From positions 1,740,001 through 1,772,000 of the forward strand of contig NZ_CP089977.1 of the NCBI RefSeq assembly GCF_025643275.1: a stretch of 32,000 nt of DNA, written 5' to 3'. The DNA comes from Moraxella nasicaprae (GTDB lineage Bacteria; Pseudomonadota; Gammaproteobacteria; Pseudomonadales; Moraxellaceae). Made by a program: the position numbers and the translations under genes. Under the pieces are notes generated by a model. That model saw nothing but the letters and a program-made list of their open reading frames with translations. It had not been told where the DNA came from and did not search any database. Shown here piece by piece: positions 923 through 29,694 of the stretch (positions are counted from its first letter, which is position 1; each line of letters begins with the position of its first letter).

Positions 923-1210
923 CTAAAAAGTGGGGGTGCGATAAGGGCTTAGTAATTGACGAACGGGGGCGGGTAAAAAGTTGCCAAATTCTGCCCCATT
1001 CTCGCTGTTTCTATTGTCATCAAGATAGCCTACCATGAGTAAGGTGGCGGTTTTTAGGCTTGGTAACATCTCATCGTTAATCTCGTCTGTGATGTAGTTT
1101 TTAACGGCATTTTCAGCAGTTTGCAGATAAATTGCCAAGATTGTGTCGTTACTGTCATCGTCATAACGCAGATGGTGTTTGACTTCATCAAGCGTGGCAA
1201 ACTCTGTCAT
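923..1210 (-). CDS. gp6-like head-tail connector (DNA-packaging/QLRG-type) protein
   Basis: 95 aa. N-terminal LDEVKHHLRYDDDSNDTILAIYLQTAENAV is typical of the Phage_connect_1 family. ATGA start/stop overlap with the portal gene. Confidence 0.7.
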   Translation of the reverse strand: MTEFATLDEVKHHLRYDDDSNDTILAIYLQTAENAVKNYITDEINDEMLPSLKTATLLMVGYLDDNRNSENGAEFGNFLPAPVRQLLSPYRTPTF

Positions 1211-2514
1211 TTTTTATCCCCTTTATCCAAAACTGCTCGTATTCTAAGGCGTGGCTTGACCGTCTTTTGTGGTTCAGTTTTTGGTGCATTGCCAAAAGGA
1301 TTGTCGCTGTTATCTCGTTTTGCCAACGCTGATAGGCTATAATTTTGCTGCTGCATCAGCGGAGACTCGCCACCGACCACAGGCGGTAGTCCAAGCATGG
1401 CACGGGCTTCATTGGGGCTAAAAATACCGCTTAGTGTGCCTTCTTTTAAGTACATAATTTGGCTGGTGCTATCCATACGGATAAGGGGGGATAAATCCGC
1501 CTCACATTCCACGCCTTCTTCAAGGTCAAGATGCTCATCAAGCAGGTTCTCAATCGCCTCGATGTAGTGTTGCAAACAGTCCGAATAATAAATCTCGTTC
1601 AAATCGGAAACTTTTTGACCTGCCTTTGCCTCACCCATACCGACTTTAAACGCTGGCACATGAAACACCGAGCAGACCGTTTCACTACTCATTTTTAGCT
1701 GTTCGATGGCTTGGGTGTCTGACGCACTCATGGCAATCGGCTCATATTTTGCCCCAGAGCCAAGCACGGCAATGCCACCACGATTGACACCGCTATAATT
1801 AGCTTGCCAATTTGCTTTGACTTCATCGGCTTTGCTTTGACTGATGTCGGTGGGGACGGATAAAATCCCAGATGGGCGAGAATTGTTACCAAACAGCGTG
1901 CGAGATTGGTTTTGGATTGACAGTCCAAGCCCCACGCTCAAATGACACGCCGTCAATGGCGAAAGACCCACAAGTGGGTGGTAAAAACAGTTAAAGCGGT
2001 CGTGAATGATTTCGCTCGCTGGCACGGTGGTTTCGGTCAGTCCAAAAAGTTTATCCGTGCTAATCTGATAAAAAACTTCGCCATCGTTGGACACAAGCAC
2101 CTTAACACGGTCAGGATTTAGCACCCATAGCTGATAGACATCGCTGAAAATGTCTCGTTGTTTCAAGATATACGCATTGCCACGCAGTAATTTACTGCTT
2201 ACCCAATTTTCAATAAACTGTTGCCAAGTTTGGTGCTTGTTCGGACGGTGCAGGATTGCTTGGCTACGAGATTTGGCAGGCAAAAGCACGCCATCTTGTA
2301 CCGACTTTGTGCGAATGCGGAGCTTGCCAATGTCGGTGCTAATCAAGCTCACACAGGCAAAAACAGCGTGAAAATGTGTCAAATCCGTGCGTTTGAGTTC
2401 GTCATTTTTTTGCCACGCCCCCATATAAGGTTCGCCCACAATGGGTAGCCAACCATTACCGCCATTTGAAATTGGGGTCAGCGATTTTTTCTTGAATAAA
2501 TCAAACAGTTTCAT
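1207..2514 (-). CDS. Phage portal protein, HK97 family
   Basis: 435 aa. Portal-family blocks are present (LLRGNAYIL, FNCFYHPLVGLSPL, NRGGIAVLGSGAKYEPI, SPNEARAMLGLPP). Confidence 0.9.
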   Translation of the reverse strand: MKLFDLFKKKSLTPISNGGNGWLPIVGEPYMGAWQKNDELKRTDLTHFHAVFACVSLISTDIGKLRIRTKSVQDGVLLPAKSRSQAILHRPNKHQTWQQFIENWVSSKLLRGNAYILKQRDIFSDVYQLWVLNPDRVKVLVSNDGEVFYQISTDKLFGLTETTVPASEIIHDRFNCFYHPLVGLSPLTACHLSVGLGLSIQNQSRTLFGNNSRPSGILSVPTDISQSKADEVKANWQANYSGVNRGGIAVLGSGAKYEPIAMSASDTQAIEQLKMSSETVCSVFHVPAFKVGMGEAKAGQKVSDLNEIYYSDCLQHYIEAIENLLDEHLDLEEGVECEADLSPLIRMDSTSQIMYLKEGTLSGIFSPNEARAMLGLPPVVGGESPLMQQQNYSLSALAKRDNSDNPFGNAPKTEPQKTVKPRLRIRAVLDKGDKK

Positions 2515-2526
2515 GCAAACCTGCCA

Positions 2527-2703
2527 TCAGCTTAATTCCAATTCTGCCGTTTTGTTAGTTTTTGCTTTGGACGGCTTAGGCTTTTTGTCCGCCACCGCTT
2601 CGGCAATGCCAAGCGTAATCAACACCTTTGCTTGGTCATCTGGCACTTCATGAATTTCGCCCATCGCTCCAAGCGGTGCGTCTTTTAGGTATTTGATTTG
2701 CAT
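2527..2703 (-). CDS. Small hypothetical phage protein (58 aa, below the ORF-track cutoff)
   Basis: Hand translation gives MQIKYLKDAPLGAMGEIHEVPDDQAKVLITLGIAEAVADKKPKPSKAKTNKTAELELS. AAGGGG RBS lies 6 nt upstream of the ATG at 2703. It fills the capsid-portal gap and ends 12 nt before the portal ATG. Confidence 0.4.
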   Translation of the reverse strand: MQIKYLKDAPLGAMGEIHEVPDDQAKVLITLGIAEAVADKKPKPSKAKTNKTAELELS

Positions 2704-2724
2704 TTTTAACCCCTTAATTAGCTA

Positions 2725-2786
2725 TTTTTGTTGTGAATAAGCTCTTTATCCACAACAAAAACAGCCCATTTTTGGACTGTTTTTTA
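2725..2786 (-). terminator. Two tandem hairpins downstream of the capsid gene
   Basis: Perfect 11-bp inverted repeat TTTTTGTTGTG (2725-2735) / CACAACAAAAA (2751-2761). A second hairpin, ACAGCCC (2761-2767) / GGACTGT (2775-2781), is flanked by A and T runs. Both lie 16-77 nt after the capsid stop. Confidence 0.45.
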
Positions 2787-2801
2787 AGTTTGGTTTAGGA
2801 C

Positions 2802-4148
2802 TTAGTCTGTGTATTTGATGAAGCCGACCGCCTTGGCATGGCGTTTTTTCCAGCGGATAAAGCGTTCGGCACGGATTGCCGTTAGGTTGTTTTGGAACAG
2901 ATTGACCAGATTTGGCGTGCGTTCATCACCTAAGTTGATGGTTGCTTCGTTCGACACCGAGAAATCCACACCGCCATCGTCGGCAAGCAGGATTTGGCTT
3001 GGGACAATCAGTACGATTTTATCGCCTAAGCTGCCAGAAGTATGCACAGGCAAGCCCTTAAATGAACGATTGCCCGTCAAGCTCATGCCTTCAAAATAGG
3101 TGCGACCAAGTGCATCACGCATACCGCTAATTTGCATCGCACGAGTTTCGCTCATGCCCCATACCGCCCCTTCTAGGCTAATGCCAGCGTCCACCAGCTC
3201 CTTGATAAGTGCATTGGTATCCGCATCAATCTTGTCAGCGGTCGCCCCTGTGGCGTTGATAGCCACCACACCGTTTAGCACCGATGCTGGTGATTCTGCG
3301 GCTTCTGCCTTGTCAGGGTCAAAAAATTGCTCATCAATGAACTGGGCAACAGTTGCCACCAAGTCATCACGCACCATCTGGTCAGCTTTTGGATTACTAA
3401 AACGAATCAGCTCATCAGACAGCAGTACAATGCCTGCGATTTTGGCGTGTCCTAGCGTCATTGAGCCAAATTGTGGGTTGCCAACTGGCTTCATTTTGCC
3501 TTCGCCCACCCAGCCAACCGAGCCACTGGCGGTCTGCATGGGGATTTTCACATTAAATGGCACTTGTCGCATTTGAGCGGCGATTTTATCCACCACGGTT
3601 TTTTGACGCACAAGGTCAATAAATTCGCCTGTCAAATTGGTATAATCAATGAGTTCTTTGCCAAAATTGGCATCGGTGGTCGTACCAGCCACCGCCTTTT
3701 GTGTCGCAGCATTGATGACGTTTTCTGGGGCGTTCCAGCCTTGCAGCACTTCACGGGTGGTAATGCCGCCTTTGGATTTGGTGGCAATGGCAGAGGCTTT
3801 GACCAGTAGGGCAAATCCTGTGCCTTTGGGCAGGTTGGATTCTACTTGCACGCTTTTGGTCTCTTTGGGGATAGTTTCGCCTTCGGCACTTGCTTTGGCT
3901 TGTTCTGGGTTTTCGCCACCAATTTCGGTAGGATTTGGGGCGGTTTCTACTGATTTAATGAGCTTTTGTAAGCGTTCAGCATTTTTTTCAAGGCGTGCGA
4001 TGTCGTCTTCTAACGCCTTAATTTGGGTCTCTTCATCATCATTGGGTGTGCGACCGCTTTTGACAGCTTTTGTCAAAATCTCGCCCATTTCTTTGCGTTT
4101 GGCTTCAATGGTGGCTTTGATTTGAGCCAGTTGTTGTGCATAAGTCAT
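2802..4148 (-). CDS. Major capsid protein, HK97 family, with N-terminal coiled-coil delta/scaffold domain
   Basis: 448 aa. The N-terminal ~100 aa are charged coiled-coil (AQIKATIEAKRKEMGEI...LEDDIARLEKNAERLQKLI), followed by an HK97-fold-type body. ATGA overlap with the protease stop. Confidence 0.9.
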   Translation of the reverse strand: MTYAQQLAQIKATIEAKRKEMGEILTKAVKSGRTPNDDEETQIKALEDDIARLEKNAERLQKLIKSVETAPNPTEIGGENPEQAKASAEGETIPKETKSVQVESNLPKGTGFALLVKASAIATKSKGGITTREVLQGWNAPENVINAATQKAVAGTTTDANFGKELIDYTNLTGEFIDLVRQKTVVDKIAAQMRQVPFNVKIPMQTASGSVGWVGEGKMKPVGNPQFGSMTLGHAKIAGIVLLSDELIRFSNPKADQMVRDDLVATVAQFIDEQFFDPDKAEAAESPASVLNGVVAINATGATADKIDADTNALIKELVDAGISLEGAVWGMSETRAMQISGMRDALGRTYFEGMSLTGNRSFKGLPVHTSGSLGDKIVLIVPSQILLADDGGVDFSVSNEATINLGDERTPNLVNLFQNNLTAIRAERFIRWKKRHAKAVGFIKYTD

Positions 4149-4759
4149 AATAACGATACTCCGCTTTTATTAGGTAAAATTAAAGCAACCGAGCCATCTG
4201 ACTGGTTGCTTTTTTGAGTTTGGGTGGGTGGTGGCTGGATTGGGTTAATCGGTGGATTTGGGGTTGGTTGCAGCGGCAGATTAAATGCGTCTTTGATTTG
4301 CTTGACGCTAGTAATAACCGCATCGGCATTAGCTGGGACGGTTACGACCGACAGCTCATACCATTCCCATTCCTTGATGTGTAAGCCCCACGAGCTTTCC
4401 AAATAATTGTATTCTTTGATTTTAAAGCCAACGGATAGGCATTTGACAAGCCCGCTTTTGATAGATTGCCACGCCTCATCGATACGGTCTTTTAATTTAC
4501 CATCATCAGCGATTTTGGCAATCTTGGCGACAATCTCAATACCTTTGTCTGTTACCGTTGCCGAAATCACTTCGCCAATCGGTTGATTATGATTGTGCTG
4601 CCACAGTAGCGGAATGGGTAGGGCAAATTTTGCCCCCAACGGCTCTAAAATGTCATCGTCCCTATCGGTACTGGGTGTGGTGGCAATGCCTGTAATAAGG
4701 CGTTCATCGTCCGTGTCGGTTACGGATTTGATTTGTAGGGTTGAGTAGGCTTTGGTCAT
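4145..4759 (-). CDS. Prohead maturation protease, HK97 family (peptidase S78/U35)
   Basis: MTKAYSTLQIKSV...ITGIATTPSTDRDDDILEP start; His motif LLWQHNHNQPIG; Ser motif LSVGF; ELSVVTVPANADA. The ATG at 4759 is preferred over the track's TTG at 4771. Confidence 0.85.
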   Translation of the reverse strand: MTKAYSTLQIKSVTDTDDERLITGIATTPSTDRDDDILEPLGAKFALPIPLLWQHNHNQPIGEVISATVTDKGIEIVAKIAKIADDGKLKDRIDEAWQSIKSGLVKCLSVGFKIKEYNYLESSWGLHIKEWEWYELSVVTVPANADAVITSVKQIKDAFNLPLQPTPNPPINPIQPPPTQTQKSNQSDGSVALILPNKSGVSLL

Positions 4760-4776
4760 AATTTTTTCCAATAAAA

Positions 4777-4797
4777 AACCGCCCTATGTAGGCGGTT
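4777..4797 (-). terminator. Rho-independent terminator closing the NYN cassette
   Basis: The minus strand reads AACCGCC-tacatag-GGCGGTT followed by TTTTTAT. It lies 19 nt after the NYN stop and before the protease start. Confidence 0.6.
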
Positions 4798-4815
4798 GGT
4801 TTTTGGTCTTTTTGG

Positions 4816-5493
4816 TTATTTTTGCTTTCGTTTGGTATGGTAAGTTGTCCGCAGTCCATCAATATGCTCAAACAAATCATCAGAAATCGGCTGGTGCATC
4901 GCATCTAGGATAAAGTCCACACCTTCACGCCGTGCCAGTTTGGCGGCAGGGACAAAATCGGCATCACCTGCAATCAGTACAATGCGATTGGCTTGCATTT
5001 TTAGGGCAACAGTCGCAATATCCACACCAATCCGCATATCTACGCCTTTTTGCATAATGTCAATGGTAAAATCATCATCCGTTAAATCACCCCATGCTTT
5101 CTTGTCTTTTAGGAGTTCGGATAGTACACGGGGTTTTAGTCGCCAGCCATTGCTATAATCAGATAATCTACCCAATCTCAGAGCAAATTTACGCTTTTGA
5201 ATCAGCTCTTTATGCAGTTCTCTGCGAAACACCGCTTCGTCTGATTTTGATAAATCCAGGGCTGTACGAGTCTTGGGGCGGTGCATTTTCTTTTCAAGAG
5301 GAGGGCAATCATAAAAGAAAACACGGTACAAATCGTCTGTTTGTGTGCTTTGATTGCGTAGTTTTAGATGTTCTAATGCCATACCCATTGCGACATCTGC
5401 CATCTTTTTGGCATTATAATGGTCGGTCTCTGGCAAATAATGGCGTAAGCGTTTGACAAAAAATGCTCCATCAATAAAAACAGCAGTTGTCAT
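4816..5493 (-). CDS. NYN/LabA-like (PIN-superfamily) predicted ribonuclease; prophage moron
   Basis: 225 aa from the ATG at 5493, with AAGGAA RBS 6 nt upstream. Carries the NYN acidic motifs AVFIDGAFF, QKGVDMRIGVD and LIAGDADFV. The track's 20-aa N-terminal extension is rejected. Confidence 0.75.
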   Translation of the reverse strand: MTTAVFIDGAFFVKRLRHYLPETDHYNAKKMADVAMGMALEHLKLRNQSTQTDDLYRVFFYDCPPLEKKMHRPKTRTALDLSKSDEAVFRRELHKELIQKRKFALRLGRLSDYSNGWRLKPRVLSELLKDKKAWGDLTDDDFTIDIMQKGVDMRIGVDIATVALKMQANRIVLIAGDADFVPAAKLARREGVDFILDAMHQPISDDLFEHIDGLRTTYHTKRKQK

Positions 5494-5583
5494 ACAATTT
5501 CCTTTAATTAACAAAAAAGCCCAAAGGATCGGCTCTTTGAATATGTACATCAAAGGCGTACTGCTAGGGGCTAGATGTGTGTA

Positions 5584-5612
5584 ATTATATTTACAACAAC
5601 ACCTTTTGTCAA
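5584..5612 (-). promoter_or_regulatory. Perfect consensus sigma70 promoter driving the NYN gene
   Basis: The minus strand reads TTGACA (5612-5607), a 17-nt spacer, then TATAAT (5589-5584). The promoter begins 8 nt after the terminase stop codon. Confidence 0.6.
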
Positions 5613-5619
5613 GCCAATA

Positions 5620-6714
5620 TCAAAAATAAATCCCCAGATCATCAGCCGACTTTGGCGGAGCGGGGTTTTGGCTCATCAAGGCAACAGCGTTTAGCATTGC
5701 AATGACGGGGTCAATCTTGCCATTGCCACTTTCTGATTTGCTCATCATCACGCCAGAACCTGACAGCTTGACCCTTGCATTGCCCACGCACCACGCCATT
5801 AACGGCTGGCTTGCGTGGGTTAGGTCACCGCTTGCGATTTTGCGTTCGCACACTTTTTGGTATCCGCCAAGGCGGTAGCCTTGCGACACACCTGTGATTT
5901 TACCTTCTTTGGGAATGCCAATGCTTTCAAGGGCGATGACAATATCGTCCGCCCCAGCAGGGTCAAGTCCAATGCGGTCAAGTTTACCGCTGTCATAGAT
6001 ACGCTTGGCAATATCGGCAAACTCCGCCACATCATCGCCCACATTTTCCACGATGACAAGGTCGCCATCTTTTTCAAAATCACGATAACGAGGCTCGTCT
6101 TGTTTGCGTCGCTCTAAGGCAATCGGGTGGCACCACGCTTTGACCCAGACCCACCATTGCTTAACCTCGTGGCGGATATTATTGTCATCTGTGTAGATGT
6201 ATTTTGGCGTAGGCAATCGCCCCACGACAGCACAGCCCAAAAGGTCATCAAGACCGCCACCATCTCCGCCCATTGTGATGACCTCACTTTTTTCAATCAG
6301 CTCATCAAGCGTAAACGCTCGTCCTGCCTTTTCCCAAAACTCTGCTCCTGCCCAGCGATTTGCTCGTAGGCTAATGCCAATGGGAATGTTGAGATGCTTG
6401 GCTAGGGCGGTTTGTAGCGTGTTTTTGTCGTGCGATTCTTTTGCTTTTCGCAAAATATCGGCAAGCTCATCAACGCCAACGCTCGCCCCAAGATTGGGGT
6501 TGGTAATGTACCAATTTTCAGGCTTGATATACTCGCCAGACTCGATGTAGCTTTGGGGAAACTCGAACAGTACAGGCAAAAATCTTGGGTCGTCAATCTT
6601 GCCATCTCGCACCGCTCGGGCGTAGTCCAGTTTTTCTTTAAACACCCCTGCGGGTGGCTCATCTGACATGGTGGTTAGCCAAATCACAAAGCCCTCATGA
6701 ATGAAAGTTCCCAA
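5620..6714 (-). pseudogene. terL: Large terminase subunit (Terminase_1-like), 5'-truncated; only the last ATPase motif and the nuclease domain remain
   Basis: The 364-aa remnant begins near the ITTAG-type motif (VIWLTTMSDEPP). It has no Walker A/B region and no ATG with an RBS; the track start is a TTG. Full-length family members are roughly 550 aa (from memory). Confidence 0.75.
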
Positions 6715-6877
6715 TTTTTTGACTTTGTATATCGGTTTTATTATTTGCTTTACTTGTGGTATATGGGGTTGGCAAGCAACAAATGGGTGGATTAGTTACT
6801 TCTTGATGGGCAACGCCATAGCTCTGTTTGCGATTCATTTAATCATGGCGATTTATTATATTGGAGCGAATAAATGA
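6701..6877 (+). CDS. Possible small two-TM membrane protein (58 aa), translationally coupled to the PrtN-like gene
   Basis: Hand translation gives MKVPNFLTLYIGFIICFTCGIWGWQATNGWISYFLMGNAIALFAIHLIMAIYYIGANK. Its stop overlaps the next ATG as ATGA. There is no clear RBS, and T-rich DNA yields hydrophobic ORFs by chance. Confidence 0.3.
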   Translation: MKVPNFLTLYIGFIICFTCGIWGWQATNGWISYFLMGNAIALFAIHLIMAIYYIGANK

Positions 6878-7152
6878 AACCACTTACCCCCAAAATCTCC
6901 ACCCAAGACTATCTATTTTTGCAGTTTGGGAAATTGGTGGTAGAACTTCGTGAAGTATGCCAAATTTATTATCCGCATTTAAGTCATACTGCGATGAACC
7001 GCACGGCAAGCGAACAAGGCTTTGCTTTTCCTTGCTTTCGCCTTGCCGATAGCCAAAAATCGCCGTATTTTGTCCATTTGTCCGACTTGGCGACCGCCCT
7101 TGACAAAGCAAAGAATGCGGTCAAGTCTAACCATTCAAAACTTCACGCATAA
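6874..7152 (+). CDS. PrtN-family (pyocin-activator-like) small DNA-binding protein; probable excisionase/regulator of the island
   Basis: 92 aa. LFLQFGKLVVELREVCQIYYPHLSHTAM...FPCFRLADSQKSPYFVHLSDLATALDKAK matches my recollection of the PrtN family pattern. It is convergent with the integrase and overlaps it by 26 nt. Confidence 0.55.
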   Translation: MKPLTPKISTQDYLFLQFGKLVVELREVCQIYYPHLSHTAMNRTASEQGFAFPCFRLADSQKSPYFVHLSDLATALDKAKNAVKSNHSKLHA

Positions 7153-8234
7153 CCTCATCAAAAGTGGGCGTGTTTGCCCGCTTATGTACCGACACATACT
7201 TTTGTAAACTCCCCCAACTTCTGTGCAGACTGACCGACTGGATTTGGGGGATTGTCATTCCAGTTTCGGCAAGTCGTGTACAGGCTTCGTGCCGTAAGTC
7301 GTGAAAATGCAAATCATCAATGCCAAGTAAATGACAGGCTTCTGTGAATAATTTACTTATTATCTTATGGCTTTCTGCCACCAAATAAGTGTCATTGGCG
7401 GTATGCTGTTTTAAAAGCTCAATGATTTGCCTTGCTTCTGGCAATACTGTAAATTTTTGATGGTTGCCAGCACTTCCTTTGGGGTTTTTGACATCTCGCA
7501 CCACAAACACATCGCCCAAATCGTCCGCCAGTTCTAGGCGGGTAATTTCGGCTTGCCGTCTGCCCGACAATAAGGCAAACCACATAATCAGGTGCATTGC
7601 CACACCGCCATTTTGCCATTTTTGATCAAAATGGGCAGTTAATTTAATCAACTCATCACTCGTTGGCAAGCGGTCTCGTTTATTGCTTGGTGCGACATTG
7701 CGAGTCTTTTTAAGCTGTTTTAAAGCTCGTTTTAGGGCGTTCATATCCAATTCCACCCCCCCACATAATTTCTGCGTGGTCTAGCACGCCAAAAAGGTAA
7801 GTAAATTCCGCCCCAAGCGTGGCAGGGGTGGTGGGGTCAAGGGCAAGCGACTTTACGCCAGTTTTACGCAGATTGGCGTGGTCGGTGATGTCAAGGGGAC
7901 TAATGGCGGTCAAAGGCAACTTGCTAATGGGAAATTTTTGCAAAAGCCTTAGGGCGTGCATTTTTGAGCGCCCAAAGCCTGCCCCAAGCTCGCTAATATA
8001 ACGGTCAATTGCATCGCTAACCGTCAAATCATCGCTGATGCCTTTTGCCCCAAACAAGAGTTTTGGATTGTCTTTTAATTCTTGTTCTCGCTTGGCTATC
8101 CACGCCTGAGCGAGTTTTTTTGTGCCAAAATTGGCAGATTCTCGGTAGGGCGGAAAACCTTGCTTACCGATACGAATTTCGGCATAATAACGACTGATAC
8201 CGTCTTTATTTTTGCGTGTGCGAATGCTACCCAT
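7127..8234 (-). pseudogene. int: dusA-associated tyrosine integrase, split by a 1-nt frameshift in a G7 homopolymer
   Basis: Track ORFs 7710-8234 (N-terminal SAM-like part) and 7127-7756 (catalytic part: LLSGRRQAEI, HDLRHEA, LQKYV Tyr) overlap in different frames. Removing one G from the run at 7756-7762 joins them as ...EIMWGVELDMNAL.... Confidence 0.85.
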
Positions 8235-8357: not shown

Positions 8358-9344
8358 ATGCTTTCCCTACAAAATCATTTAAAATCAAATACTAAAAGAA
8401 TATCGGTTGCTCCGATGATTGACTGGACAAGCAGTCATTATCGTACCTTTGCACGGCTGTTTAATCCTAACATTTATCTTTATACCGAGATGATTAGCAC
8501 GGGGGCGATTTTAAAGGGAGATACCGCTCATCATTTGCGTTTTTTTGATAATGAACCGCCTCTTGTGCTACAACTTGGCGGAAGTAATCCTACCGAGCTT
8601 GCTCAATGTGCCAAACTTGGGCAAGACTACGGTTATACTGAAATTAACCTAAATGTCGGTTGCCCCTCCGACCGTGTCCAGTTTAATAAAATTGGGGCGT
8701 GCTTGATGGCAGAAGCTTCCCTTGTGGCGGACTGTGTCAAGGCGATGAAAGATAATTGCGATTTGCCTGTTACCGTCAAGCACAGGATTGGCATTGATAA
8801 TTTTGACAGTTATGAATTTATGCGTGATTTTGTGGGGACGGTGGCAGAGACTGGTTGTACGCATTTTATTGTTCACGCTAGGATTGCGATTTTAAACGGC
8901 TTATCGCCCAAAGAAAACCGTGAAATTCCGCCCCTGCGTTATGATGATGTTTATCGTTTAAAACAAGAATTTCCAGAGCTTTTTATAGAAATCAATGGTG
9001 GCATTAAAACCCTTGATGAAATCAAAACGCACCTAAATTTCGTAGACGGCGTGATGATTGGGCGAGAGTTTTATCACAATCCAATGCTGTTGGGGCAATG
9101 CAATGAACTTTGGGGTAGGCAAGCACCCACCCATCAAGAAATTTTTGATAAACTTTTGATTTTATTAGAAAATTTTGAAAAAACGGGCGTGCCATTGACA
9201 CTTGTGATGAGGCACTATTTGGGGCTATTTCAAGGTTTGGCAGGCTCTCGCAAATGGCGACAGGCATTAAGTGGGCAAAAATCTTTAAGCCTATCACAAA
9301 TTGAGCAAGCAGGGCGAGCGGTACTTGCTCAAAATGCAGGCTGA
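8358..9344 (+). CDS. dusA: tRNA-dihydrouridine(20/20a) synthase DusA
   Basis: 328 aa. SVAPMIDWTSSHYR, LYTEMISTGAI, LQLGGSNP, EINLNVGCPSDRV, HARIAILNGLSPKENREIPPL and GLFQGLAGSRKWRQ are collinear with E. coli DusA. Confidence 0.9.
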   Translation: MLSLQNHLKSNTKRISVAPMIDWTSSHYRTFARLFNPNIYLYTEMISTGAILKGDTAHHLRFFDNEPPLVLQLGGSNPTELAQCAKLGQDYGYTEINLNVGCPSDRVQFNKIGACLMAEASLVADCVKAMKDNCDLPVTVKHRIGIDNFDSYEFMRDFVGTVAETGCTHFIVHARIAILNGLSPKENREIPPLRYDDVYRLKQEFPELFIEINGGIKTLDEIKTHLNFVDGVMIGREFYHNPMLLGQCNELWGRQAPTHQEIFDKLLILLENFEKTGVPLTLVMRHYLGLFQGLAGSRKWRQALSGQKSLSLSQIEQAGRAVLAQNAG

Positions 9345-13714: not shown

Positions 13715-14386
13715 ATGAAAAATACAACAATCCGTGCATTGGCGTTCAATGCTATTACCGCCATCACTGCTGTGGCAGCAATCAGTACACCATCTTTGAT
13801 GGCAGTCGCTGCTCAATCGATGACTGCCGCCAGTCAAGATGACGCTGCCAAAAACCTAAATCGACTATTGACCAACACCAAATCCATGTCAGCAAGTTTT
13901 AGCCAAACAACCAAAGCTGGCAAAAAGACCACCAATTTTTCTGGTGTGATGAGTGTGCAACGCCAAAATCAATTTCGCTGGGAAACCAAACAGCCAGCCG
14001 AGCAGTTGATTGTTGCCAATGGTAGTACGCTATGGGTCTATGACAAAGATTTGCAACAAGTGACCAAGCAGTCAGTCAGCAACCAAGTGGGCGATACCCC
14101 AGCCTTGCTACTGTCTGGTAATCCTGCTCAAATCAGCCAAAACTTTAATATCAGTCAGCCTAATGCTGCCAAAAATTACTATGTCCTGACGCCAAAATCA
14201 GCCAATGCAAATTTTAAGAGCTTGACGCTAAGTTTCAATGGCGGTCGCCCTGTGATGATGGTGCTAAATGACAACATCGGTCAAGAAACAGTGATTCGTT
14301 TTAGCAATATCACGATGAATAAACGCATTGCCGCCAGTCAATTTGACTTTAAGCCACCTGCGGGCGTAGACATCATCAACCAATAA
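13715..14386 (+). CDS. lolA: Outer-membrane lipoprotein carrier protein LolA
   Basis: 223 aa. Signal peptide, then the LolA pattern (L..LL.....SMSASFSQT...GK......G.MSVQRQNQFRWE....AEQLIVANGSTLWVYDKDLQQV). GGAGA RBS. Confidence 0.85.
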   Translation: MKNTTIRALAFNAITAITAVAAISTPSLMAVAAQSMTAASQDDAAKNLNRLLTNTKSMSASFSQTTKAGKKTTNFSGVMSVQRQNQFRWETKQPAEQLIVANGSTLWVYDKDLQQVTKQSVSNQVGDTPALLLSGNPAQISQNFNISQPNAAKNYYVLTPKSANANFKSLTLSFNGGRPVMMVLNDNIGQETVIRFSNITMNKRIAASQFDFKPPAGVDIINQ

Positions 14387-14410
14387 GACAAACTGTGGCT
14401 TGATAACCAA

Positions 14411-14440
14411 AATCCCATCATGATTTGATGGGATTTTTTT
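14411..14440 (+). terminator. Rho-independent terminator after lolA
   Basis: AATCCCATCA (14411-14420), loop TGATT, TGATGGGATT (14426-14435), then TTTTT. Confidence 0.75.
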
Positions 14441-14522
14441 GTGAGGTGTTTTTTTGTAAACTGATGCGTTCAAAAATAATTTGTAAAAAATATCTTACCG
14501 AGTGCTGTGTTTTTGTAAATTG

Positions 14523-14531
14523 TGTTATAAT
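14523..14531 (+). promoter_or_regulatory. Extended -10 promoter candidate for the nuo operon
   Basis: TGtTATAAT lies 41 nt upstream of the nuoA ATG. There is no good -35. Confidence 0.45.
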
Positions 14532-14571
14532 AGTAGGGTTTTATAAAAGATAACAATCACAAGAGGTGATT

Positions 14572-15171
14572 ATGTTAGCCAATTGGTCAGCGATTGCATT
14601 TTTGCTAGCCGCCGCAGGGCTTGTGGTATTTATGTTGGTTGTGCCACGCTTATTAGGCGGGCGTTCGTCAGGTTCTCAAAAGCAGGAAACTTTTGAGGCT
14701 GGTGTCGTATCCGCAGGTTCGGCACGCATTAGATTGTCTGCCAAGTTTTATCTGGTGGCGATTTTTTTTGTTATTTTTGATTTAGAAGCCTTATTCTTAT
14801 ATGCGTATTCGGTCAGTGTTCGTGAGGTGAGCTGGGTTGGATTTGCTGCCGCTGCCACCTTTATTGCCATCTTGTTTGTCGGTCTGGTCTATGAGATGAG
14901 ATTGGGAGCGATGAATTGGGCACCTGCTGATAAACGCAAGAAAAAACCACGCATTTACACCAAACCAGAGGGATTTGATTTAGCCAGCATTACCGCCTTT
15001 AATGGTATTGATGAACTTCATTCTGACCCCACAGGCAAGGTTCCCGCTCAATCATCAGGTCGCATCAATGTCTCTAATGACATTGAAAAAAACAAAGCAC
15101 ACATGGCAAATATTGACCACATCAATAGCACAGGTCGTGTTACCACCCAAGATTTTAACCAAAAAACCTAA
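14572..15171 (+). CDS. nuoA: NADH-quinone oxidoreductase subunit A, with a long hydrophilic C-terminal extension
   Basis: The core FEAGV...GSARIRLSAKFYLVAIFFVIFDLEALFLY matches NuoA. The ATG at 14572 sits 5 nt after AAGAGG and is preferred over the GTG at 14566. Confidence 0.9.
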   Translation: MLANWSAIAFLLAAAGLVVFMLVVPRLLGGRSSGSQKQETFEAGVVSAGSARIRLSAKFYLVAIFFVIFDLEALFLYAYSVSVREVSWVGFAAAATFIAILFVGLVYEMRLGAMNWAPADKRKKKPRIYTKPEGFDLASITAFNGIDELHSDPTGKVPAQSSGRINVSNDIEKNKAHMANIDHINSTGRVTTQDFNQKT

Positions 15172-15283
15172 AAAAAGCGTTGCAGCTTGCCTGTGGCGTT
15201 TTTTCATTTTTATAAAAAAATCAAAAAGTGTAATTTAATAGCCAGATTTATCGAGCGATTTTGACAAACATCGGTTCTGTATT

Positions 15284-15955
15284 ATGAAATATACCCTAAC
15301 CAAAGCCAATCCAGAAGCAAATCAATACCCTAAGCAATCCAAAGAGTTGATTGATGACATTACCCAAGCTGAGATTGATAAGAATGTCTTTATGGGTAAA
15401 TTGTCCGATTTGACGCATGGTCTTGCCAACTGGGGACGCAAAAACTCATTGTGGCCGTTCAACTTTGGCACATCGTGCTGCTATGTGGAATATGCCACAA
15501 CTTTGACAGGCGTTCACGACTTGTCAAGATTTGGGGCAGAGGTCATTCGTGCCAGCCCTCGCCAAGCTGATGTGATGATTGTCGCTGGTACTTGTTTTGT
15601 CAAGATGGCACCTGTGATTTTGCGTCTATATGAGCAAATGCTAGAACCCAAATGGGTCATCTCGATGGGGGCGTGTGCCAACTCTGGCGGTATGTACGAC
15701 ATTTATTCGGTGGTGCAGGGTGTGGATAAAATCCTACCTGTTGATGTCTATATTCCAGGCTGTCCACCTCGCCCTGAGGCGGTCATTCAGGCATTGATGT
15801 TGCTACAAAATTCCATCACGCACGAACGCCGTCCTTTGGGCATTCATCTAAATGAGCAGGGCATCATTCAGCCTGTGATGACGCCAGAACGAGACCGAAA
15901 AAATGCCGACCGTATCGCTACTGTTAATTTGCGTAGCCAAGATGATGCGTTTTAG
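15284..15955 (+). CDS. nuoB: NADH-quinone oxidoreductase subunit B
   Basis: [36 protein letters not shown] and PGCPPRPEA (N2 cluster ligands). Confidence 0.95.
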
Positions 15956-15963
15956 GTATTAAA

Positions 15964-15995
15964 TGTGTTTTTAGGATAACATTGTAGATTTGCAA
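15964..15995 (+). repeat. Copy A of a repeated nuo intergenic motif (nuoB-nuoCD spacer)
   Basis: TGTGTTTTTAGGATAA-CATTGTA-GATTTGCAA; compare copy B at 18450-18487. Confidence 0.6.
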
Positions 15996-16053
15996 CAACA
16001 GATAGGCAATCAGACAATCAGCTGCCAGTGAATATATAAAACAAGTTGTCATT

Positions 16054-17802
16054 ATGAGTATTAACCACATTCACGATTTTGAGATTTTAAACGAGCTTAA
16101 TGCTCATTTTACAAATTTGACCGTCCAAGAGACGGCGGACGGCATTCCCACTGTTTGGGTGGATAAAGGGCAGGTGCTTGACGTTTTGCTGTATTTACGC
16201 AAATTGCCTAAGCCCTTTGTAATGCTGGTAGATTTATCCGCCATTGATGAGCGTTTGCGTCAGCATCGTTATGGTTTGCCAAAAAGTGATTTTACCGTAT
16301 TTTATCACTTAATGAGCTTGGAGCGAAATTCTGACATTCGTATCAAGGTTGCGTTGGCAGAAGGCGAAAGCATTCCATCAGCGACCAAGATTTATCCAAA
16401 TGCCAACTGGTACGAAAGGGAAGTGTGGGATATGTTCGGTGTGGTGTTTGACGGACACCCGCATTTGACACGCATTTTATTGCCCAAATATTGGGAGGGA
16501 CACCCACTTCGTAAAGAATACCACGCACGAGCGACTGAGTTTACCCCTTATTTTCTTAATACCGCCAAACAGCAGTTTGAACAAGAAAATCTGCGTTTTG
16601 TGCCAGAAGAATGGGGCATGAAACGAAGTGGGCGAGATGAGGACTTTATGTTCCTAAACATCGGGCCTAACCACCCATCTGCTCATGGGGCGTTTCGCTT
16701 GGTGTTGCAGCTTGATGGCGAGGAGATTGTCGATTGTATTCCTGACATTGGCTACCATCATCGTGGGGCGGAGAAGATGGCAGAACGCCAAACTTGGCAC
16801 TCGTTCATTCCTTATACTGACCGCATTGACTATCTGGGCGGAGTGATGAATGAATTGCCCTATATTATGGCGGTTGAAAAACTGGCTGGCATCACAGTAC
16901 CACCACGAGCCCAAACGATTCGTGTGATGATGAGTGAATTTTTCCGCATTACCAACAACCTTTTGTATTGGGGAACATTCATTCAAGACGCTGGCGGTAT
17001 GACCCCTGTGTTTTATATGTTTGCCGACCGTCAAAAGGCGTATGATGTCATCGAGGCGGTGACAGGCTATCGTATGCACCCAGCATGGTTTAGGATTGGT
17101 GGTACAGCTCATGATTTGCCAAATGGCTGGCAAAAACTGGTCAGAGATTTCTTGGATTGGATGCCAAAACGCCTTGATGAATACTTTAAGGCAAGTATGA
17201 CCAACAGCGTGCTAAAAGGACGCACCCAAAATGTCGCCCAATACGATGCCAAACAAGCGTTGGCTTGGGGGGTGACTGGTGCAGGTCTGCGTGCTACTGG
17301 TGTTGAGTTTGACTTGCGTAAAGCTCGTCCTTATATGGGCTACGAAAACTTTGACTTTGAAGTGCCTGTGTTCTATAACGGCGATGCTTATGACAGATGC
17401 TTGGTGAAGATTGAAGAAATTCGCCAATCTCTGCGTATCATTGAGCAATGTTTAAACAATATGCCATCAGGAGCCTATAAAGCCGAACATCCACTGGCTG
17501 TACCACCACCCAAAGATCGCACTTTGCAAGACATTGAGACTTTGATTAACCACTTTGTTTCTGTGTCTTGGGGTCCTGTCATGCCAGCTGGCGAGAGTGC
17601 CTGTATGGTCGAGGGCGTAAAAGGATTGAACAGCTATTATGTCACTTCTGACAATTCAACCATGAGTTATCGCACCCGTATTCGCACGCCAACCTTTGCT
17701 CATTTGCAGCAGATGCCGTCCGTGATTAACGGCTCTTTGGTGCCTGATGCGATTATTTATCTTGCCAGCATTGATATTGTGATGGCGGATTGTGATAGAT
17801 AA
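16054..17802 (+). CDS. nuoCD: NADH-quinone oxidoreductase fused subunit C/D
   Basis: 582 aa, collinear with E. coli NuoCD ([63 protein letters not shown]). Confidence 0.95.
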
Positions 17803-17816
17803 TCAAGGATAACAAT

Positions 17817-18401
17817 ATGCATAAACCCATCTCACCGCAAATGTTTTATTATGGCTTTCCTGTGATTTTATTAACAAGCATTGATGAAAATAATAAAACA
17901 AACATCACACCGATTTCTTCCAGTTGGTGTTTGGGTGATAATGTGGTGATTGGGATTAGTATGCAAGGAAAGGCTTTTGAAAACATCAGGACTTGTGGGG
18001 AAGTGGTATTAAATTTACCTGATGAAACACTTTGGGAAAAAATAGAAAAGATTGCCCCGACAACTGGTAAAAATCCCGTGCCTGATTATAAGAAGTCGGA
18101 TTATCAATTTTGTGCTGATAAGTTTGAACAGGGCGGATTTACAGCCCAAAGCTCCACAAAGATAAAACCGTCTCGCATTAAAGAATGCCCATTGCAAGCC
18201 GAAACCAAAGTGGTCAATGTGAGCGAAAGGGACGGTTATGCCATTATTGAATTAAAAATTGTACAGGTTCACGCCTGCAAGAATTTGATAATGGACAATG
18301 ATAAAATCGACCCAACCAAATGGCAACCACTCATTTATAATTTTCGTCATTATCAAGGGCTTGGTGACTTGTTGGGCAAAAACTTTCGTGCATCAAAATA
18401 A
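17817..18401 (+). CDS. Flavin-reductase-like (FMN-binding split-barrel) protein inserted in the nuo operon
   Basis: 194 aa. The N-terminal FYYGFPVILLTSIDENNKTNITPISSSW..GDNVVIGIS pattern is typical of Flavin_Reduct-domain proteins. AAGGAT RBS. Starts 14 nt after the nuoCD stop. Confidence 0.7.
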   Translation: MHKPISPQMFYYGFPVILLTSIDENNKTNITPISSSWCLGDNVVIGISMQGKAFENIRTCGEVVLNLPDETLWEKIEKIAPTTGKNPVPDYKKSDYQFCADKFEQGGFTAQSSTKIKPSRIKECPLQAETKVVNVSERDGYAIIELKIVQVHACKNLIMDNDKIDPTKWQPLIYNFRHYQGLGDLLGKNFRASK

Positions 18402-18449
18402 GCACCAAAACACCCATCGGAACTTGCTGGGCTGATGATGTTAAAAGAG

Positions 18450-18487
18450 TGTGTATTTAGGATAAAATCATTGTAAGAATTTTGTAA
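18450..18487 (+). repeat. Copy B of a repeated nuo intergenic motif (spacer upstream of nuoE)
   Basis: TGTGTATTTAGGATAA-aat-CATTGTA-AGAATTTTGTAA. The 16-nt core matches copy A at 15/16 and the CATTGTA block at 7/7. Confidence 0.6.
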
Positions 18488-18545
18488 AAATATTAAATGT
18501 AAAAAAGCCAGTCTGTGGTTAAGGACTAGCAAAAAAGGTAATGTT

Positions 18546-19055
18546 ATGAAAATCGTAACTGACAAAACTCCCAAAGTCGCTATTGAGACGATTTTAACGC
18601 CTGATGAGATTGCAGGCATTGATGAATACATTCATCACTATCCACAAGCTCGTGCAGCGGTGCTCGACGCTCTTAAACTTGTCCAAAAAAGAAATGGTTG
18701 GGTCAATGACGCTCAGGTTGCCGCCATCGCCAATATGCTTGATATTGCAGTGAGTGATGTGGAGGGTGTGGCAACTTTCTTTAATCGCATTTATCGTTCG
18801 CCTGTGGGTCGCCATGTGATTTTGATTTGCGATAGTATTGCTTGCTATCTCAATGGCTACGAGGAGCTTGCCAATGCCTTTAAGCGTGAGCTTGGCATTG
18901 AGTATGGACAGACCACGCCTGATGGTCGTTTTACACTTTTGCCGATTTGCTGTTTGGGCAACTGTGATAAGGGGGCAAGTGTATTGATTGATGAGGACAC
19001 TTATGGTCCTGTACTGCCAAGTGAAGTTGCTTATTTATTGGAGCAATATCAATGA
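18546..19055 (+). CDS. nuoE: NADH-quinone oxidoreductase subunit E
   Basis: 169 aa. 2Fe-2S ligand pattern ICDSIAC...PICCLGNCDKG. Confidence 0.95.
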   Translation: MKIVTDKTPKVAIETILTPDEIAGIDEYIHHYPQARAAVLDALKLVQKRNGWVNDAQVAAIANMLDIAVSDVEGVATFFNRIYRSPVGRHVILICDSIACYLNGYEELANAFKRELGIEYGQTTPDGRFTLLPICCLGNCDKGASVLIDEDTYGPVLPSEVAYLLEQYQ

Positions 19056-20479
19056 TTTATAATGAAATGACCAACAAGGCGGACTTAAAAAGCCAAATTC
19101 AAGCACGCCAAAATGGACTTGCTCCAAGCCAGCTAAACCGCCAAAAAACACCGATTTGGGGCGTGGGGCTAGCAGATGGACAAGCTCCCACCAGTCTAAC
19201 ACACCCGCTCACTTGGCGACTATATCATCAAGATGCGGTGCTAAAATTGGCAGATTATTTGGCACTAAAAGGGTTTGATGGATTTAAGATTGCCTTAACA
19301 AAAAGCCCAAAAGAAGTGGGCGAGATGATAAAACTTGCCAATGTGCGTGGACGAGGCGGTGCTGGCTTTAACGCAGGATTAAAATGGACCTTTATGACAC
19401 CCCCAGATGGCGGTGTACGGTATCTGATTTGTAATGCCGATGAGATGGAACCGGGGACTTTTAAAGACCGCCTTTTGATGGAGCGTTTGCCGTTTCAGCT
19501 GATTGAGGGAATGCTGATTACCGCTTATGCCATTGGGGCGAGTGTCGGTTATATCTTTATTCGTGGCGAGTATATTTTGGCGGCACAGCGATTGGAAGCT
19601 GCCATTGCCGAGCTGCATGAACATGGTTTGATGGGCGATGATATTTTAGGCAGTGGCTTTAATTTTGATTTACATGTGCATACAGGAGCAGGACGATATA
19701 TTTGTGGCGAAGAGACGGCACTCATTAACTGTCTAGAAGGCAGACGAGCCAATCCACGCACCAAACCGCCATTTCCCCAAGTATCAGGAGCATGGGGTCG
19801 CCCAACGGTGGTTAATAATGTAGAAACGCTTAATAATATGTCTGCCATTTTGTTAAATGGGGTACAGTGGTATCTTGACCTTGCCAAGATTAAGGGCAAA
19901 AGCGAGACCCCTGGTACTAAAATTATGGGGTGTAGCGGTCGTGTCAAGGACGCAGGTCTTTGGGAATTGCCTTTTGGTTATACCGCACGAGAGATTATTG
20001 AATTGGCTGGCGGTATGCAAGACGGCTTGAAATTAAAAGCGTGGCTCCCCGGTGGGGCAAGTACCGACTTTTTGACCGCCAGCGATGAACACCTTGACCT
20101 TGTGATGGACTTTGACCCCATTATGAAAGCAGGCTCACGGCTTGGTACTTGTTTGATGATGGTGGTGGACGAAACCCAAGACATGGTTTCTTTGTCTAAG
20201 AATTTGCAACAATTTTTCCAAAGAGAGTCTTGTGGCTGGTGTACGCCGTGCCGAGATGGTTTGCCATGGGGGGTAAAAATCCTTGATGCCATTGACAATG
20301 GGCAGGGCAAAAGTGAAGACATTGATAAATTGTCCGAATTGACTCGTGATTTGTGGATTGGTAAGACTTTTTGTGCTCATGCTCCTGGTGCGATGGAGCC
20401 TTTGATGAGTGCGTTAAAATATTTCCGCCATGAATTTGAACAAAAAATTCCCAACCAAGCAGAGCAAGGAGAGGTGTGA
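19052..20479 (+). CDS. nuoF: NADH-quinone oxidoreductase subunit F
   Basis: RGRGGAGFNAGLKW FMN/NADH site, CNADEMEPGTFKDR, GAGRYICGEETALI and ESCGWCTPCRDG N3 cluster. ATGA overlap with nuoE. Confidence 0.95.
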   Translation: MIYNEMTNKADLKSQIQARQNGLAPSQLNRQKTPIWGVGLADGQAPTSLTHPLTWRLYHQDAVLKLADYLALKGFDGFKIALTKSPKEVGEMIKLANVRGRGGAGFNAGLKWTFMTPPDGGVRYLICNADEMEPGTFKDRLLMERLPFQLIEGMLITAYAIGASVGYIFIRGEYILAAQRLEAAIAELHEHGLMGDDILGSGFNFDLHVHTGAGRYICGEETALINCLEGRRANPRTKPPFPQVSGAWGRPTVVNNVETLNNMSAILLNGVQWYLDLAKIKGKSETPGTKIMGCSGRVKDAGLWELPFGYTAREIIELAGGMQDGLKLKAWLPGGASTDFLTASDEHLDLVMDFDPIMKAGSRLGTCLMMVVDETQDMVSLSKNLQQFFQRESCGWCTPCRDGLPWGVKILDAIDNGQGKSEDIDKLSELTRDLWIGKTFCAHAPGAMEPLMSALKYFRHEFEQKIPNQAEQGEV

Positions 20480-28011: not shown

Positions 28012-29694
28012 ATGATGGAACAAAACTGGATATTGCCAGCCTTGATTGCAATTCCTTTTATTGCAGGATTTTTGTGCTGGTTGATTGAAAAGGTCAATGA
28101 CCGTTTGCCACGCTGGATTGCTTTATTGAGTATGCTGGCGACATTTGGCTTGACCATCTTATTGTGGCAGCAGGGTAATTTTACCAGCTTGCTGGCAACT
28201 GACGGAGCGACACATCAGGGCAATCTGCCTTGGGCGGCACAGTTTGTTCTGCCTTGGATTCCCACCTTTGGCATCAAATTTCATCTGGCGATGGACGGAT
28301 TATCCTTGCTGATGATTGCCTTGACGGCATTTTTGGGCATCATGGCGGTGGGCTGTTCTTGGGGTGAGATTCAACGCCGAGTGGGTTTTTTCCACCTTAA
28401 TCTGCTATGGAGCTTAGGTGGTGTTATTGGTGTATTTTTGGCGATTGATTTATTCTTATTCTTTTTCTTTTGGGAATTGATGCTATTGCCAATTTACTTT
28501 TTGATTGCTCTTTGGGGGCATAATGCCACAGGCGGACGCACCAAAGAATATGCAGCGACTAAGTTTTTTATTTATACCCAAGCATCTGGCTTAATCATGC
28601 TGATTGGCATTATCTTGATGGTCATCGTGCATTTTGCCCAAACTGGGGTGCTAAGTTTTGATTATCATGATTTGCTCGGCTTGGACATGGGCGGATTTGA
28701 ATACATCATCATGCTGTGTTTCTTTATTGGCTTTGCTGTCAAATTGCCCATCTTCCCCTTGCATGGTTGGCTTCCTGATGCTCATGCTCAGGCTCCGACA
28801 GCAGGTTCGGTGGACTTGGCTGGTATTTTGATTAAGACAGCTGCATTTGGTTTGCTAAGATTTGTACTGCCATTATTTCCAGAATCGTCAGCTCAGTTTG
28901 CTCCGATAGCGATTGTGCTTGGTATGATTGGGGTGTTTTATGGTGCATTCTTAGCCTTTGCTCAGACGGACATTAAGCGTCTGTTGGCTTATACCAGTAT
29001 TTCACACATGGGTTTTGTTGTGCTGGCGATTTATGCAGGCAATTTGGTGTCTTTACAAGGCTTAATGGTGCAGATGGTGGCTCATGGTCTATCAAGTGCG
29101 GCATTATTTATCATGTCAGGTCAGTTGTACGAGCGACTACATACCCGTGATTTGAGCGTGATGGGTGGCATGTGGGGTCAATTTAGATATTTTGCACCAT
29201 TACTGATGTTCTTTGCCGCAGCGTTGCTTGGCATTCCTGGTGCGGGCAACTTTATTGGTGAAATTCTGATTTTACTTGGTTCATTTGCTAAGCACCCAAT
29301 CGCCACGATTTTGGCGACAGTTAGTCTGGTGTTGGCAGGTCTGTATGCACTGATTTTGATTTATCAGGCATTGTTTGGTAAAAACACCGCCACAACGCTT
29401 GCCGTACAAAATGGTGGTCGCCTAAAAGATTTGGGAAAAAGAGAGCTGGTGATGCTGACAACTTTGGTGGCAGGCTTGCTATGGCTTGGTCTGTACCCTC
29501 AGCCTGTCTTGGATAAATCTTACAGTTCGATGCAGTGGATTGGTGCAGCATACGCACAGGGCGTGCAGGCGAGTAAGCCTCAGCATGGTGTGCGTTTGAT
29601 TGAAGGCAACATGGGCGATTATATGAATCAGCATAAGTTCGACCTGCAAGATGGACATCATCATGACCATCATCACCATCATCATGACCACTAA
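28012..29694 (+). CDS. nuoM: NADH-quinone oxidoreductase subunit M, with a C-terminal His-rich tail
   Basis: Antiporter-like core (FFFWELMLLPIYFLIALWG, KLPIFPLHGWLPDAHAQAPTAGSVDLAGILIK). Ends ...DGHHHDHHHHHHDH. Confidence 0.95.
   Translation: MMEQNWILPALIAIPFIAGFLCWLIEKVNDRLPRWIALLSMLATFGLTILLWQQGNFTSLLATDGATHQGNLPWAAQFVLPWIPTFGIKFHLAMDGLSLLMIALTAFLGIMAVGCSWGEIQRRVGFFHLNLLWSLGGVIGVFLAIDLFLFFFFWELMLLPIYFLIALWGHNATGGRTKEYAATKFFIYTQASGLIMLIGIILMVIVHFAQTGVLSFDYHDLLGLDMGGFEYIIMLCFFIGFAVKLPIFPLHGWLPDAHAQAPTAGSVDLAGILIKTAAFGLLRFVLPLFPESSAQFAPIAIVLGMIGVFYGAFLAFAQTDIKRLLAYTSISHMGFVVLAIYAGNLVSLQGLMVQMVAHGLSSAALFIMSGQLYERLHTRDLSVMGGMWGQFRYFAPLLMFFAAALLGIPGAGNFIGEILILLGSFAKHPIATILATVSLVLAGLYALILIYQALFGKNTATTLAVQNGGRLKDLGKRELVMLTTLVAGLLWLGLYPQPVLDKSYSSMQWIGAAYAQGVQASKPQHGVRLIEGNMGDYMNQHKFDLQDGHHHDHHHHHHDH

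Follow-up and report, generated by a model that had tools for sequence, protein, structure and literature searches.

A flavin reductase gene inside the nuo operon

The window considered here is a stretch of 32,000 nucleotides (nt) from Moraxella nasicaprae (NCBI RefSeq assembly GCF_025643275.1, contig NZ_CP089977.1, positions 1,740,001 to 1,772,000 of the forward strand), and our subject is a gene for a 194-amino-acid (aa) split-barrel protein of the flavin mononucleotide (FMN)-binding kind, called the flavin reductase below, which lies inside the nuo cluster for respiratory complex I. The cluster has 13 genes with a fused nuoCD, and runs on the plus strand from nuoA (14566) to nuoN (31179). 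The flavin reductase gene (17817..18401, plus strand) stands between nuoCD (16054..17802, plus strand), which encodes the fused 30-kDa and 49-kDa subunits (Pfam Complex1_30kDa and Complex1_49kDa), and nuoE (18546..19055, plus strand; Pfam 2Fe-2S_thioredx), and these two genes are the left and right borders of the slot that it occupies. The nuoCD stop codon, TAA, is at 17800-17802 and the ATG of the inserted open reading frame (ORF) at 17817, leaving a gap of 14 nt that is too short for a promoter and holds an AAGGAT ribosome-binding site (17805..17810, plus strand) 6 nt before the ATG. The gene is followed by a non-coding spacer of 144 nt (18402..18545, plus strand) specific to the window's lineage. 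This arrangement had been described in a sequence-only reading of the stretch, and the ORF, its ribosome-binding site and the terminator-free spacer were all found as stated there.

No terminator was found in the spacer by a consensus scan, its RNA folding equals that of shuffled sequence (z = 0.02), and Rfam gave no match within 14300-19200. Since there is no room for a promoter before the gene and no terminator around it, and nuoE to nuoN must still be transcribed, co-transcription with nuo is probable; the sequence-only reading had proposed as much, and nothing in the sequence (no terminator, no structure) speaks against it. A separate promoter for nuoE within the spacer was considered and rejected, as the spacer holds a single weak promoter-like match (18441-18468, 9/12) and the count for the region, 16 against 10.9 +/- 3.0 in shuffles, is within about 2 standard deviations. 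A minus-strand ORF at 18353-18631 (92 aa) is broken by homopolymer indels among close relatives, and the spacer is therefore non-coding. The spacer is identical at 143/144 positions to those of loci L006 and L004, with a synonymous divergence (dS) of 0.07-0.20 in the flanks. It was also tried as a constrained element, but divergence proved patchy in a four-way alignment, whose first ~215 columns hold no more than two variable sites, so that the spacer does not stand out.

Identity of the inserted protein

Against Pfam PF01613 (Flavin_Reduct; gathering score 27) the protein scores 46.7 bits (E = 4.6e-12), over residues 11-182 and profile positions 3-152 of 153. NCBIfam has no named family for it, and PADLOC gave no defence-system match at E <= 0.01. 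When a profile of 21 homologues was compared with the PDB, it matched 1eje (the MTH152 FMN-binding protein; E = 1e-7) and 2d5m (flavoredoxin; 3.7e-7), and more weakly 4z85 (NbaA, a 2-nitrobenzoate nitroreductase; E = 1.2e-3). An AlphaFold2 model made from 25 sequences reached a pLDDT of 90.1 and a pTM of 0.87, and its top Foldseek matches comprised 1eje, 3fge, 4z85, 2d5m, 3bnk and 3bpk, with TM values of 0.63-0.71. There were 102 PDB matches at E <= 1e-3, and the best 50 of the 102 are annotated as flavin reductases, FMN-binding proteins or putative oxidoreductases. The modelled protein has the split beta-barrel fold shared with solved PF01613 members, and the assignment to FMN-binding split-barrel flavin reductases, first made by eye, agrees with the profile, fold and PDB matches alike.

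Within PF01613, the ORF is predicted to encode a functional flavin-binding oxidoreductase of ~22 kDa, in the branch that holds flavoredoxin, MTH152 and NbaA. Flavoredoxin (Desulfovibrio, Methanosarcina; 2d5m, 3bnk) and MTH152 (1eje) are, like the ORF product, stand-alone small flavoproteins of ~190 aa with the PF01613 split beta-barrel (TM 0.65-0.71), but they share only 17-21% identity with it and come from anaerobes and archaea, a different physiological setting. NbaA of Pseudomonas fluorescens (4z85) has the same fold (22% identity, TM 0.69 over 190 columns) and is one member that reduces a small electrophile directly, which fits the MarR, ArsR and MFS neighbourhoods in which homologues of the ORF are found (see below). 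However, no nitroaromatic pathway genes lie near the ORF, and specificity is not inferable at such distance. The probable chemistry would be NAD(P)H-dependent reduction of a small electrophile (a quinone, nitroaromatic or enone) or of a flavin, independent of complex I.

The gene is intact and, on sequence comparison, under purifying selection as a functional gene is. The ratio of non-synonymous to synonymous substitutions (dN/dS) was 0.10-0.23 in five comparisons among copies 97%, 85%, 72% and 69% identical, the reading frame is intact in 7/7 copies examined, and 25 homologues from several phyla agree fully in 28 alignment columns.

Foreign composition and distant relatives

The inserted ORF has a G+C content of 38.1% (36.9% at third codon positions) against 44.4-47.4% in the thirteen nuo genes, and of the 18 plus-strand genes measured it is the lowest at every one of the three codon positions. 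ATA accounts for 3 of its 18 isoleucine codons, against 9 of 419 in the reference neighbouring genes, and AGG for 2 of its 5 arginine codons, so that the low G+C and the ATA and AGG codons remarked on earlier from short hand counts hold for the whole gene. The sequences most similar to it, at 97% and 85% identity, come from short contigs that were put together from sequencing runs. The nearest named relatives belong to the Pasteurellaceae (59-69%; Actinobacillus muris, Nicoletella, Ursidibacter, Lonepinella), with further ones in M. cuniculi (66%), Cardiobacteriaceae (65%), Capnocytophaga (53-63%), Paenibacillus (53-54%) and Enterococcus lactis (48%). An exhaustive search gave 345 clusters (at 50% identity) with E <= 1e-10, and homologues of ~50% identity are carried on 43 plasmids. 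Atypical composition together with nearest relatives in other taxa argues for a foreign origin, and the horizontal insertion suggested by the sequence-only reading is borne out on both counts.

Outside Moraxella, the gene has quite different company. In a metagenome-assembled genome (MAG) of the Pasteurellaceae it stands alone between genes for a 615-aa GTPase and a 611-aa UvrC-like protein (both named from translations only), and in Enterococcus lactis it is divergent from a helix-turn-helix regulator that is ArsR-like by eye, the neighbouring ORFs being likewise read from translations only. On a Bacillus plasmid it is divergent from an ArsR/SmtB regulator, and on a Klebsiella IncF plasmid from a MarR regulator and an MFS transporter; on the latter plasmid the homologue is followed by a gene annotated as 'putative zinc-binding protein' (L101 5653-6021). 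No nuo genes lie beside the homologue in any of these four contexts. Pairing with such regulators is typical of inducible xenobiotic or electrophile reductases. Judged by its sequence relatives, the flavin reductase gene is foreign, mobile and stand-alone, and common to animal-associated bacteria and plasmids.

PF01613 is best known for the reductase halves of two-component flavin-dependent monooxygenases (HpaC / NtaB / RutF type), and the inserted gene might be one of these, with its oxygenase encoded elsewhere in the genome. One homologue is automatically named 'RutF', and 3bpk (NTA monooxygenase component B) was fourth in Foldseek. We nevertheless regard this as unlikely. FMN-binding proteins (1eje, flavoredoxin, NbaA) give the best matches in both sequence and structure, while the free-flavin reductases of the HpaC, SMOB and PheA2 types score lower, at TM 0.51-0.55, and the length of 194 aa with a C-terminal extension is closer to flavoredoxin (190 aa) than to HpaC-type proteins (about 150-170 aa). 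Moreover, no monooxygenase gene adjoins the homologue in the window, in L002, L001 and L003 or on two plasmids, a comparison of neighbours only that leaves room for a distant partner.

Changing cargo at two junctions of the operon

The slot was surveyed as the region upstream of nuoE in named genomes and 80 metagenome loci, reached by NuoE look-ups and one metagenome scan. A search of genome contigs with the flavin reductase as query gave two loci, and the survey of species was therefore made via NuoE. Loci with a NuoCD at least 90% identical were counted as Moraxella-clade (n=31) and those with a NuoCD 77-90% identical as more distant Moraxellaceae (n=45), the named proteins in the latter range being from Psychrobacter. 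NuoE also assigns the window to Moraxella, being ~90% identical to those of the nearest named species, M. pluranimalium, M. porci and M. marmotae.

In the 31 Moraxella-clade loci, nuoCD and nuoE are separated by 29 to 5,485 nt (median 935); the gap is longer than 300 nt in 26 of the loci and empty in 4. The nuo operon had been assumed to be normally uninterrupted, but in Moraxella it is usually interrupted. The nuoCD/nuoE junction holds ~17 unrelated gene families in at least 14 distinct contents, or ~20 Pfam families if the second slot described below is counted. Variability was seen at L003, L007-L014, L016-L041, L095, L096 and L103-L105.

The contents range from single genes to small islands. 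The window's lineage (with L006 and L004/5) has the flavin reductase with the same 14-nt gap, and in L097-99 (85% relative) and L100 (72% relative) it follows nuoCD after 6 nt. M. pluranimalium-type loci have a GFA-family gene or nothing (a gap of 29-30 nt), and M. marmotae has a GNAT acetyltransferase. M. cuniculi has six genes, two of them on the opposite strand, with the flavin reductase as the fourth. An isolate labelled M. catarrhalis carries an EcoRV-type endonuclease and a Dam-type methylase, and M. ovis a peptidase S41, an AraC regulator and fragments of the insertion sequence (IS) IS1595. A TauE exporter occupies the junction in eight metagenome loci, and other metagenome loci have a PilT-like ATPase, YqcI/YcgG, LysE, MFS or an Eco57I-type methylase. 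Two restriction-modification systems are among the slot contents (L095, L041). The PilT/PilU-like ATPase (400-405 aa, Pfam T2SSE; L016, L019, L020, L022, L023) belongs to a kind of gene, for twitching motility or competence, that is oddly placed here.

A second slot lies at the nuoB/nuoCD junction, which is empty in the window (15956..16053, plus strand, 98 nt). Among the loci its gap varies from 70 to 3,307 nt, and it may hold OsmC, GFA and PhzF, a fatty-acid desaturase and EamA, TauE, or an AurF-like gene. GFA-family (PF04828) cargo is found in either slot according to lineage, at nuoCD/nuoE in L007, L008, L011, L016 and L022 and at nuoB/nuoCD in L038, L095, L103 and L104. The region between lolA and nuoA is variable too: loci of the M. 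pluranimalium and M. catarrhalis types (L007-L012, L095, L103, L104) have DUF305 and small HMA-domain genes there, those of M. marmotae (L013, L014) have only HMA, and the window has neither.

Both nuoCD junctions are gene-free in the more distant Moraxellaceae, where the nuoCD/nuoE gap in the 45 loci has a median of 144 nt and no genes, M. macacae being the sole outlier. In Moraxella, the first cargo genes begin 6-55 nt after nuoCD, and of the 42 slot ORFs that reach 100 aa, 38 run in the direction of nuo. The same core flanks thus enclose many unrelated contents, the empty state among them, and by this comparison of sequences both junctions are hot spots of horizontal gene transfer (HGT). 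Like chromosomal HGT hot spots in general, they have conserved flanks (nuoB, nuoCD, nuoE) with alternative contents, restriction-modification systems, transporters and IS remnants. They differ from the usual kind in lying inside a respiratory operon, in the closeness of the cargo (6-55 nt) and its almost constant orientation, and in the duplications of ~30 to 180 nt by which some insertions restore the nuoCD termini. The protein family and this type of locus are both already known, and the unusual feature is that two HGT hot spots lie within one respiratory operon.

Unidentified reading frames are known inside the nqo cluster of Paracoccus and the nuo cluster of Rhodobacter, where they are conserved within lineages. 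The Moraxella cargo likewise consists of non-nuo ORFs in a complex I cluster but, unlike those frames, changes between closely related strains and species. Our searches of the literature on Moraxella nuo and on interrupted nuo operons found no description of such insertions. In their survey, Spero et al., 2015 accepted as many as 10 non-nuo ORFs between nuo genes (PMC4453560).

Routes of insertion

Several loci carry scars that point to how cargo may have entered. The GFA loci L007, L008 and L011 have a decayed second nuoCD 3' end (about 9899-9970 in L007) together with the original 30-nt spacer before nuoE, and in L097 a copy of the nuoCD terminus (29/33 nt, 713-745) follows the flavin reductase and is itself followed by a further ORF. 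In L030, an exact 178-nt copy of the nuoCD 3' end (6861-7038) lies between an MFS island and a TauE cassette. Copies of the nuoCD 5' end are found in the nuoB/nuoCD slot of L028 (3203-3381; 179 nt, 100% identical), L029 (3205-3383; 179 nt, 89%) and L032 (3647-3825; 109 + 29 nt). Copies of the two nuoCD ends are thus of nearly equal length, ~179 nt. No recombinase was found in the scar-bearing slots. L100 has three copies of a short palindromic element, of the kind termed REP-like, after its flavin reductase (1018-1374; GGTGCGTAATACACACC and variants).

The pattern of scars probably reflects recombination anchored in nuoCD after natural transformation, either as homology-facilitated illegitimate recombination or as a single crossover with a circular fragment. 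The former has been discussed in natural-transformation studies of Acinetobacter baylyi, which we take to belong to the same family as Moraxella. Exchange between lineages may have left a trace too, in that the window and L100 differ less at synonymous sites in the flavin reductase (0.78) than in the adjoining segment of nuoCD (1.66). Homology between the lineages ends at the end of the ORF, and the window's spacer is unrelated to those 3' of the flavin reductase in L097 and L100.

Integron gene cassettes resemble the slot cargo in being promoterless, co-oriented single-gene units with a presumed upstream promoter, and in their serial stacking (as in L097 and L030). The visible boundaries of the slot cargo, in contrast, are copies of nuoCD ends. 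An integron cassette was rejected for the window, as the spacer has no attC-like structure (z = 0.02, as above) and neither the window's slot nor any inspected slot has an integrase; the one integrase-like ORF (7127-7756) is part of a prophage remnant at a distance of 10 kb.

Passenger or partner of complex I

The reading that we favour, at a probability of roughly 70%, is that the gene encodes a mobile, stand-alone FMN reductase which is expressed by riding on the nuo transcript, as a passenger and not as a helper of complex I. In the window's lineage it would occupy one of two hypervariable cargo slots flanking nuoCD, and the MarR or ArsR regulator found beside it in other hosts would have been lost here. 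Since it lies 14 nt behind nuoCD, has its own ribosome-binding site and has no terminator on either side, it would most likely be carried as a passenger on the nuo mRNA, and its synthesis would accompany that of complex I.

The sequence-only reading had suggested an accessory role for complex I, such as FMN supply or scavenging for NuoF, an auxiliary electron path or protection; on this view a dedicated accessory would have been fixed in the operon for its function. Its position in the operon with a 14-nt gap and no terminator, its FMN-binding family, its recurrence right after nuoCD in several Moraxella lineages and the purifying selection on it would all suit such a role. Against it, sister lineages whose nuo genes are intact have ~17 unrelated families, or nothing, at the same junction, and the flavin reductase is absent from most Moraxella nuo clusters and from the 45 more distant Moraxellaceae nuo loci. 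As Moraxella with intact nuo genes lack the flavin reductase or carry an unrelated gene in its place, its operon position is a property of the slot and not of its function. Homologues 48-70% identical have no nuo neighbours, and some have stress-type regulators of their own (a Pasteurellaceae genome, Enterococcus, plasmids). To our knowledge, complex I is missing altogether from enterococci and from Pasteurellaceae of the Haemophilus type. The M. cuniculi copy of the gene stands at a distance of 2.2 kb from nuoCD, with two opposite-strand genes after it. A flavin chaperone, scavenger or extra electron input for complex I is accordingly very improbable; of the roles that had been suggested, a protective NAD(P)H reductase in a generic sense is compatible with a passenger, but has no specific tie to complex I.

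Least probable of all is that the gene is a decaying or neutral hitch-hiker, a recent junk insertion tolerated because transcription into nuoE to nuoN is not blocked, for although its foreign composition and the accidental look of many other slot contents (IS fragments, remnants) would suit this, the intact frames, the low dN/dS (also between copies 72-85% identical), the invariant columns and the confident AlphaFold2 model are those of a working gene.

Some points weigh against the passenger reading. At least three diverged Moraxella lineages (the window type, L097 at 85% and L100 at 72%) have the flavin reductase immediately after nuoCD, and the M. cuniculi island includes it too; this recurrence could hint at a preferred association. 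The window's cassette has no detectable second copy of the nuoCD 3' end (z = 0.3), so that for this lineage the route of insertion is presumed. The co-transcription on which the reading leans is itself predicted from the arrangement of the genes, and the class of substrate is a prediction as well. The recurrence would be accounted for most simply by exchange through highly conserved flanks, and GFA and TauE recur likewise.

A broader reading, which we offer as tentative, is that the Moraxella nuo cluster is an integrase-free expression platform, in which promoterless foreign genes are captured, stacked and swapped between species at the two slots and expressed from the operon promoter. Capture would be by recombination after natural transformation, regenerating the nuoCD ends and leaving duplications of ~30 to 180 nt. 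The cargo would comprise reductases, GFA, acetyltransferases, exporters and even restriction-modification systems, the flavin reductase being one such cargo.

Other features of the window

Some further features of the window were noted. Directly after nuoA is a 14-bp hairpin with A and T runs on both sides (15172-15204; dG -13.7 kcal/mol, z = -2.4), in appearance a terminator or attenuator between this gene and nuoB. At 201 aa NuoA is long, through a C-terminal extension common to most other Moraxella (197-209 aa), the M. macacae protein being 172 aa, and NuoM ends in a natural His-rich tail (DGHHHDHHHHHHDH; 29545-29694). A prophage remnant on the minus strand (1207-8234) has genes for a portal, a major capsid protein, a prohead protease S78, an NYN-domain protein and a terminase nuclease fragment, and its tyrosine integrase may be split (7127-7756 and 7710-8234). 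It adjoins a gene at 8358, whose counterpart in the syntenic locus L006 is of the Dus family, and is unrelated to the nuo slots.

Implications for Moraxella and its respiratory operon

For the biology of complex I the result is negative, as the analysis yielded no evidence of a new accessory subunit that handles flavin. More interesting than the flavin reductase itself are the variable slots inside the operon. They also caution against inferring what a gene does from its place in an operon ('guilt by association') where the bacteria are mucosal and naturally transformable. Within this single genus, two fixed junctions of a large respiratory operon admit changing foreign genes, whose expression the operon perhaps drives, and the Moraxella slots offer a natural system in which to study how foreign genes are inserted into operons without breaking them.

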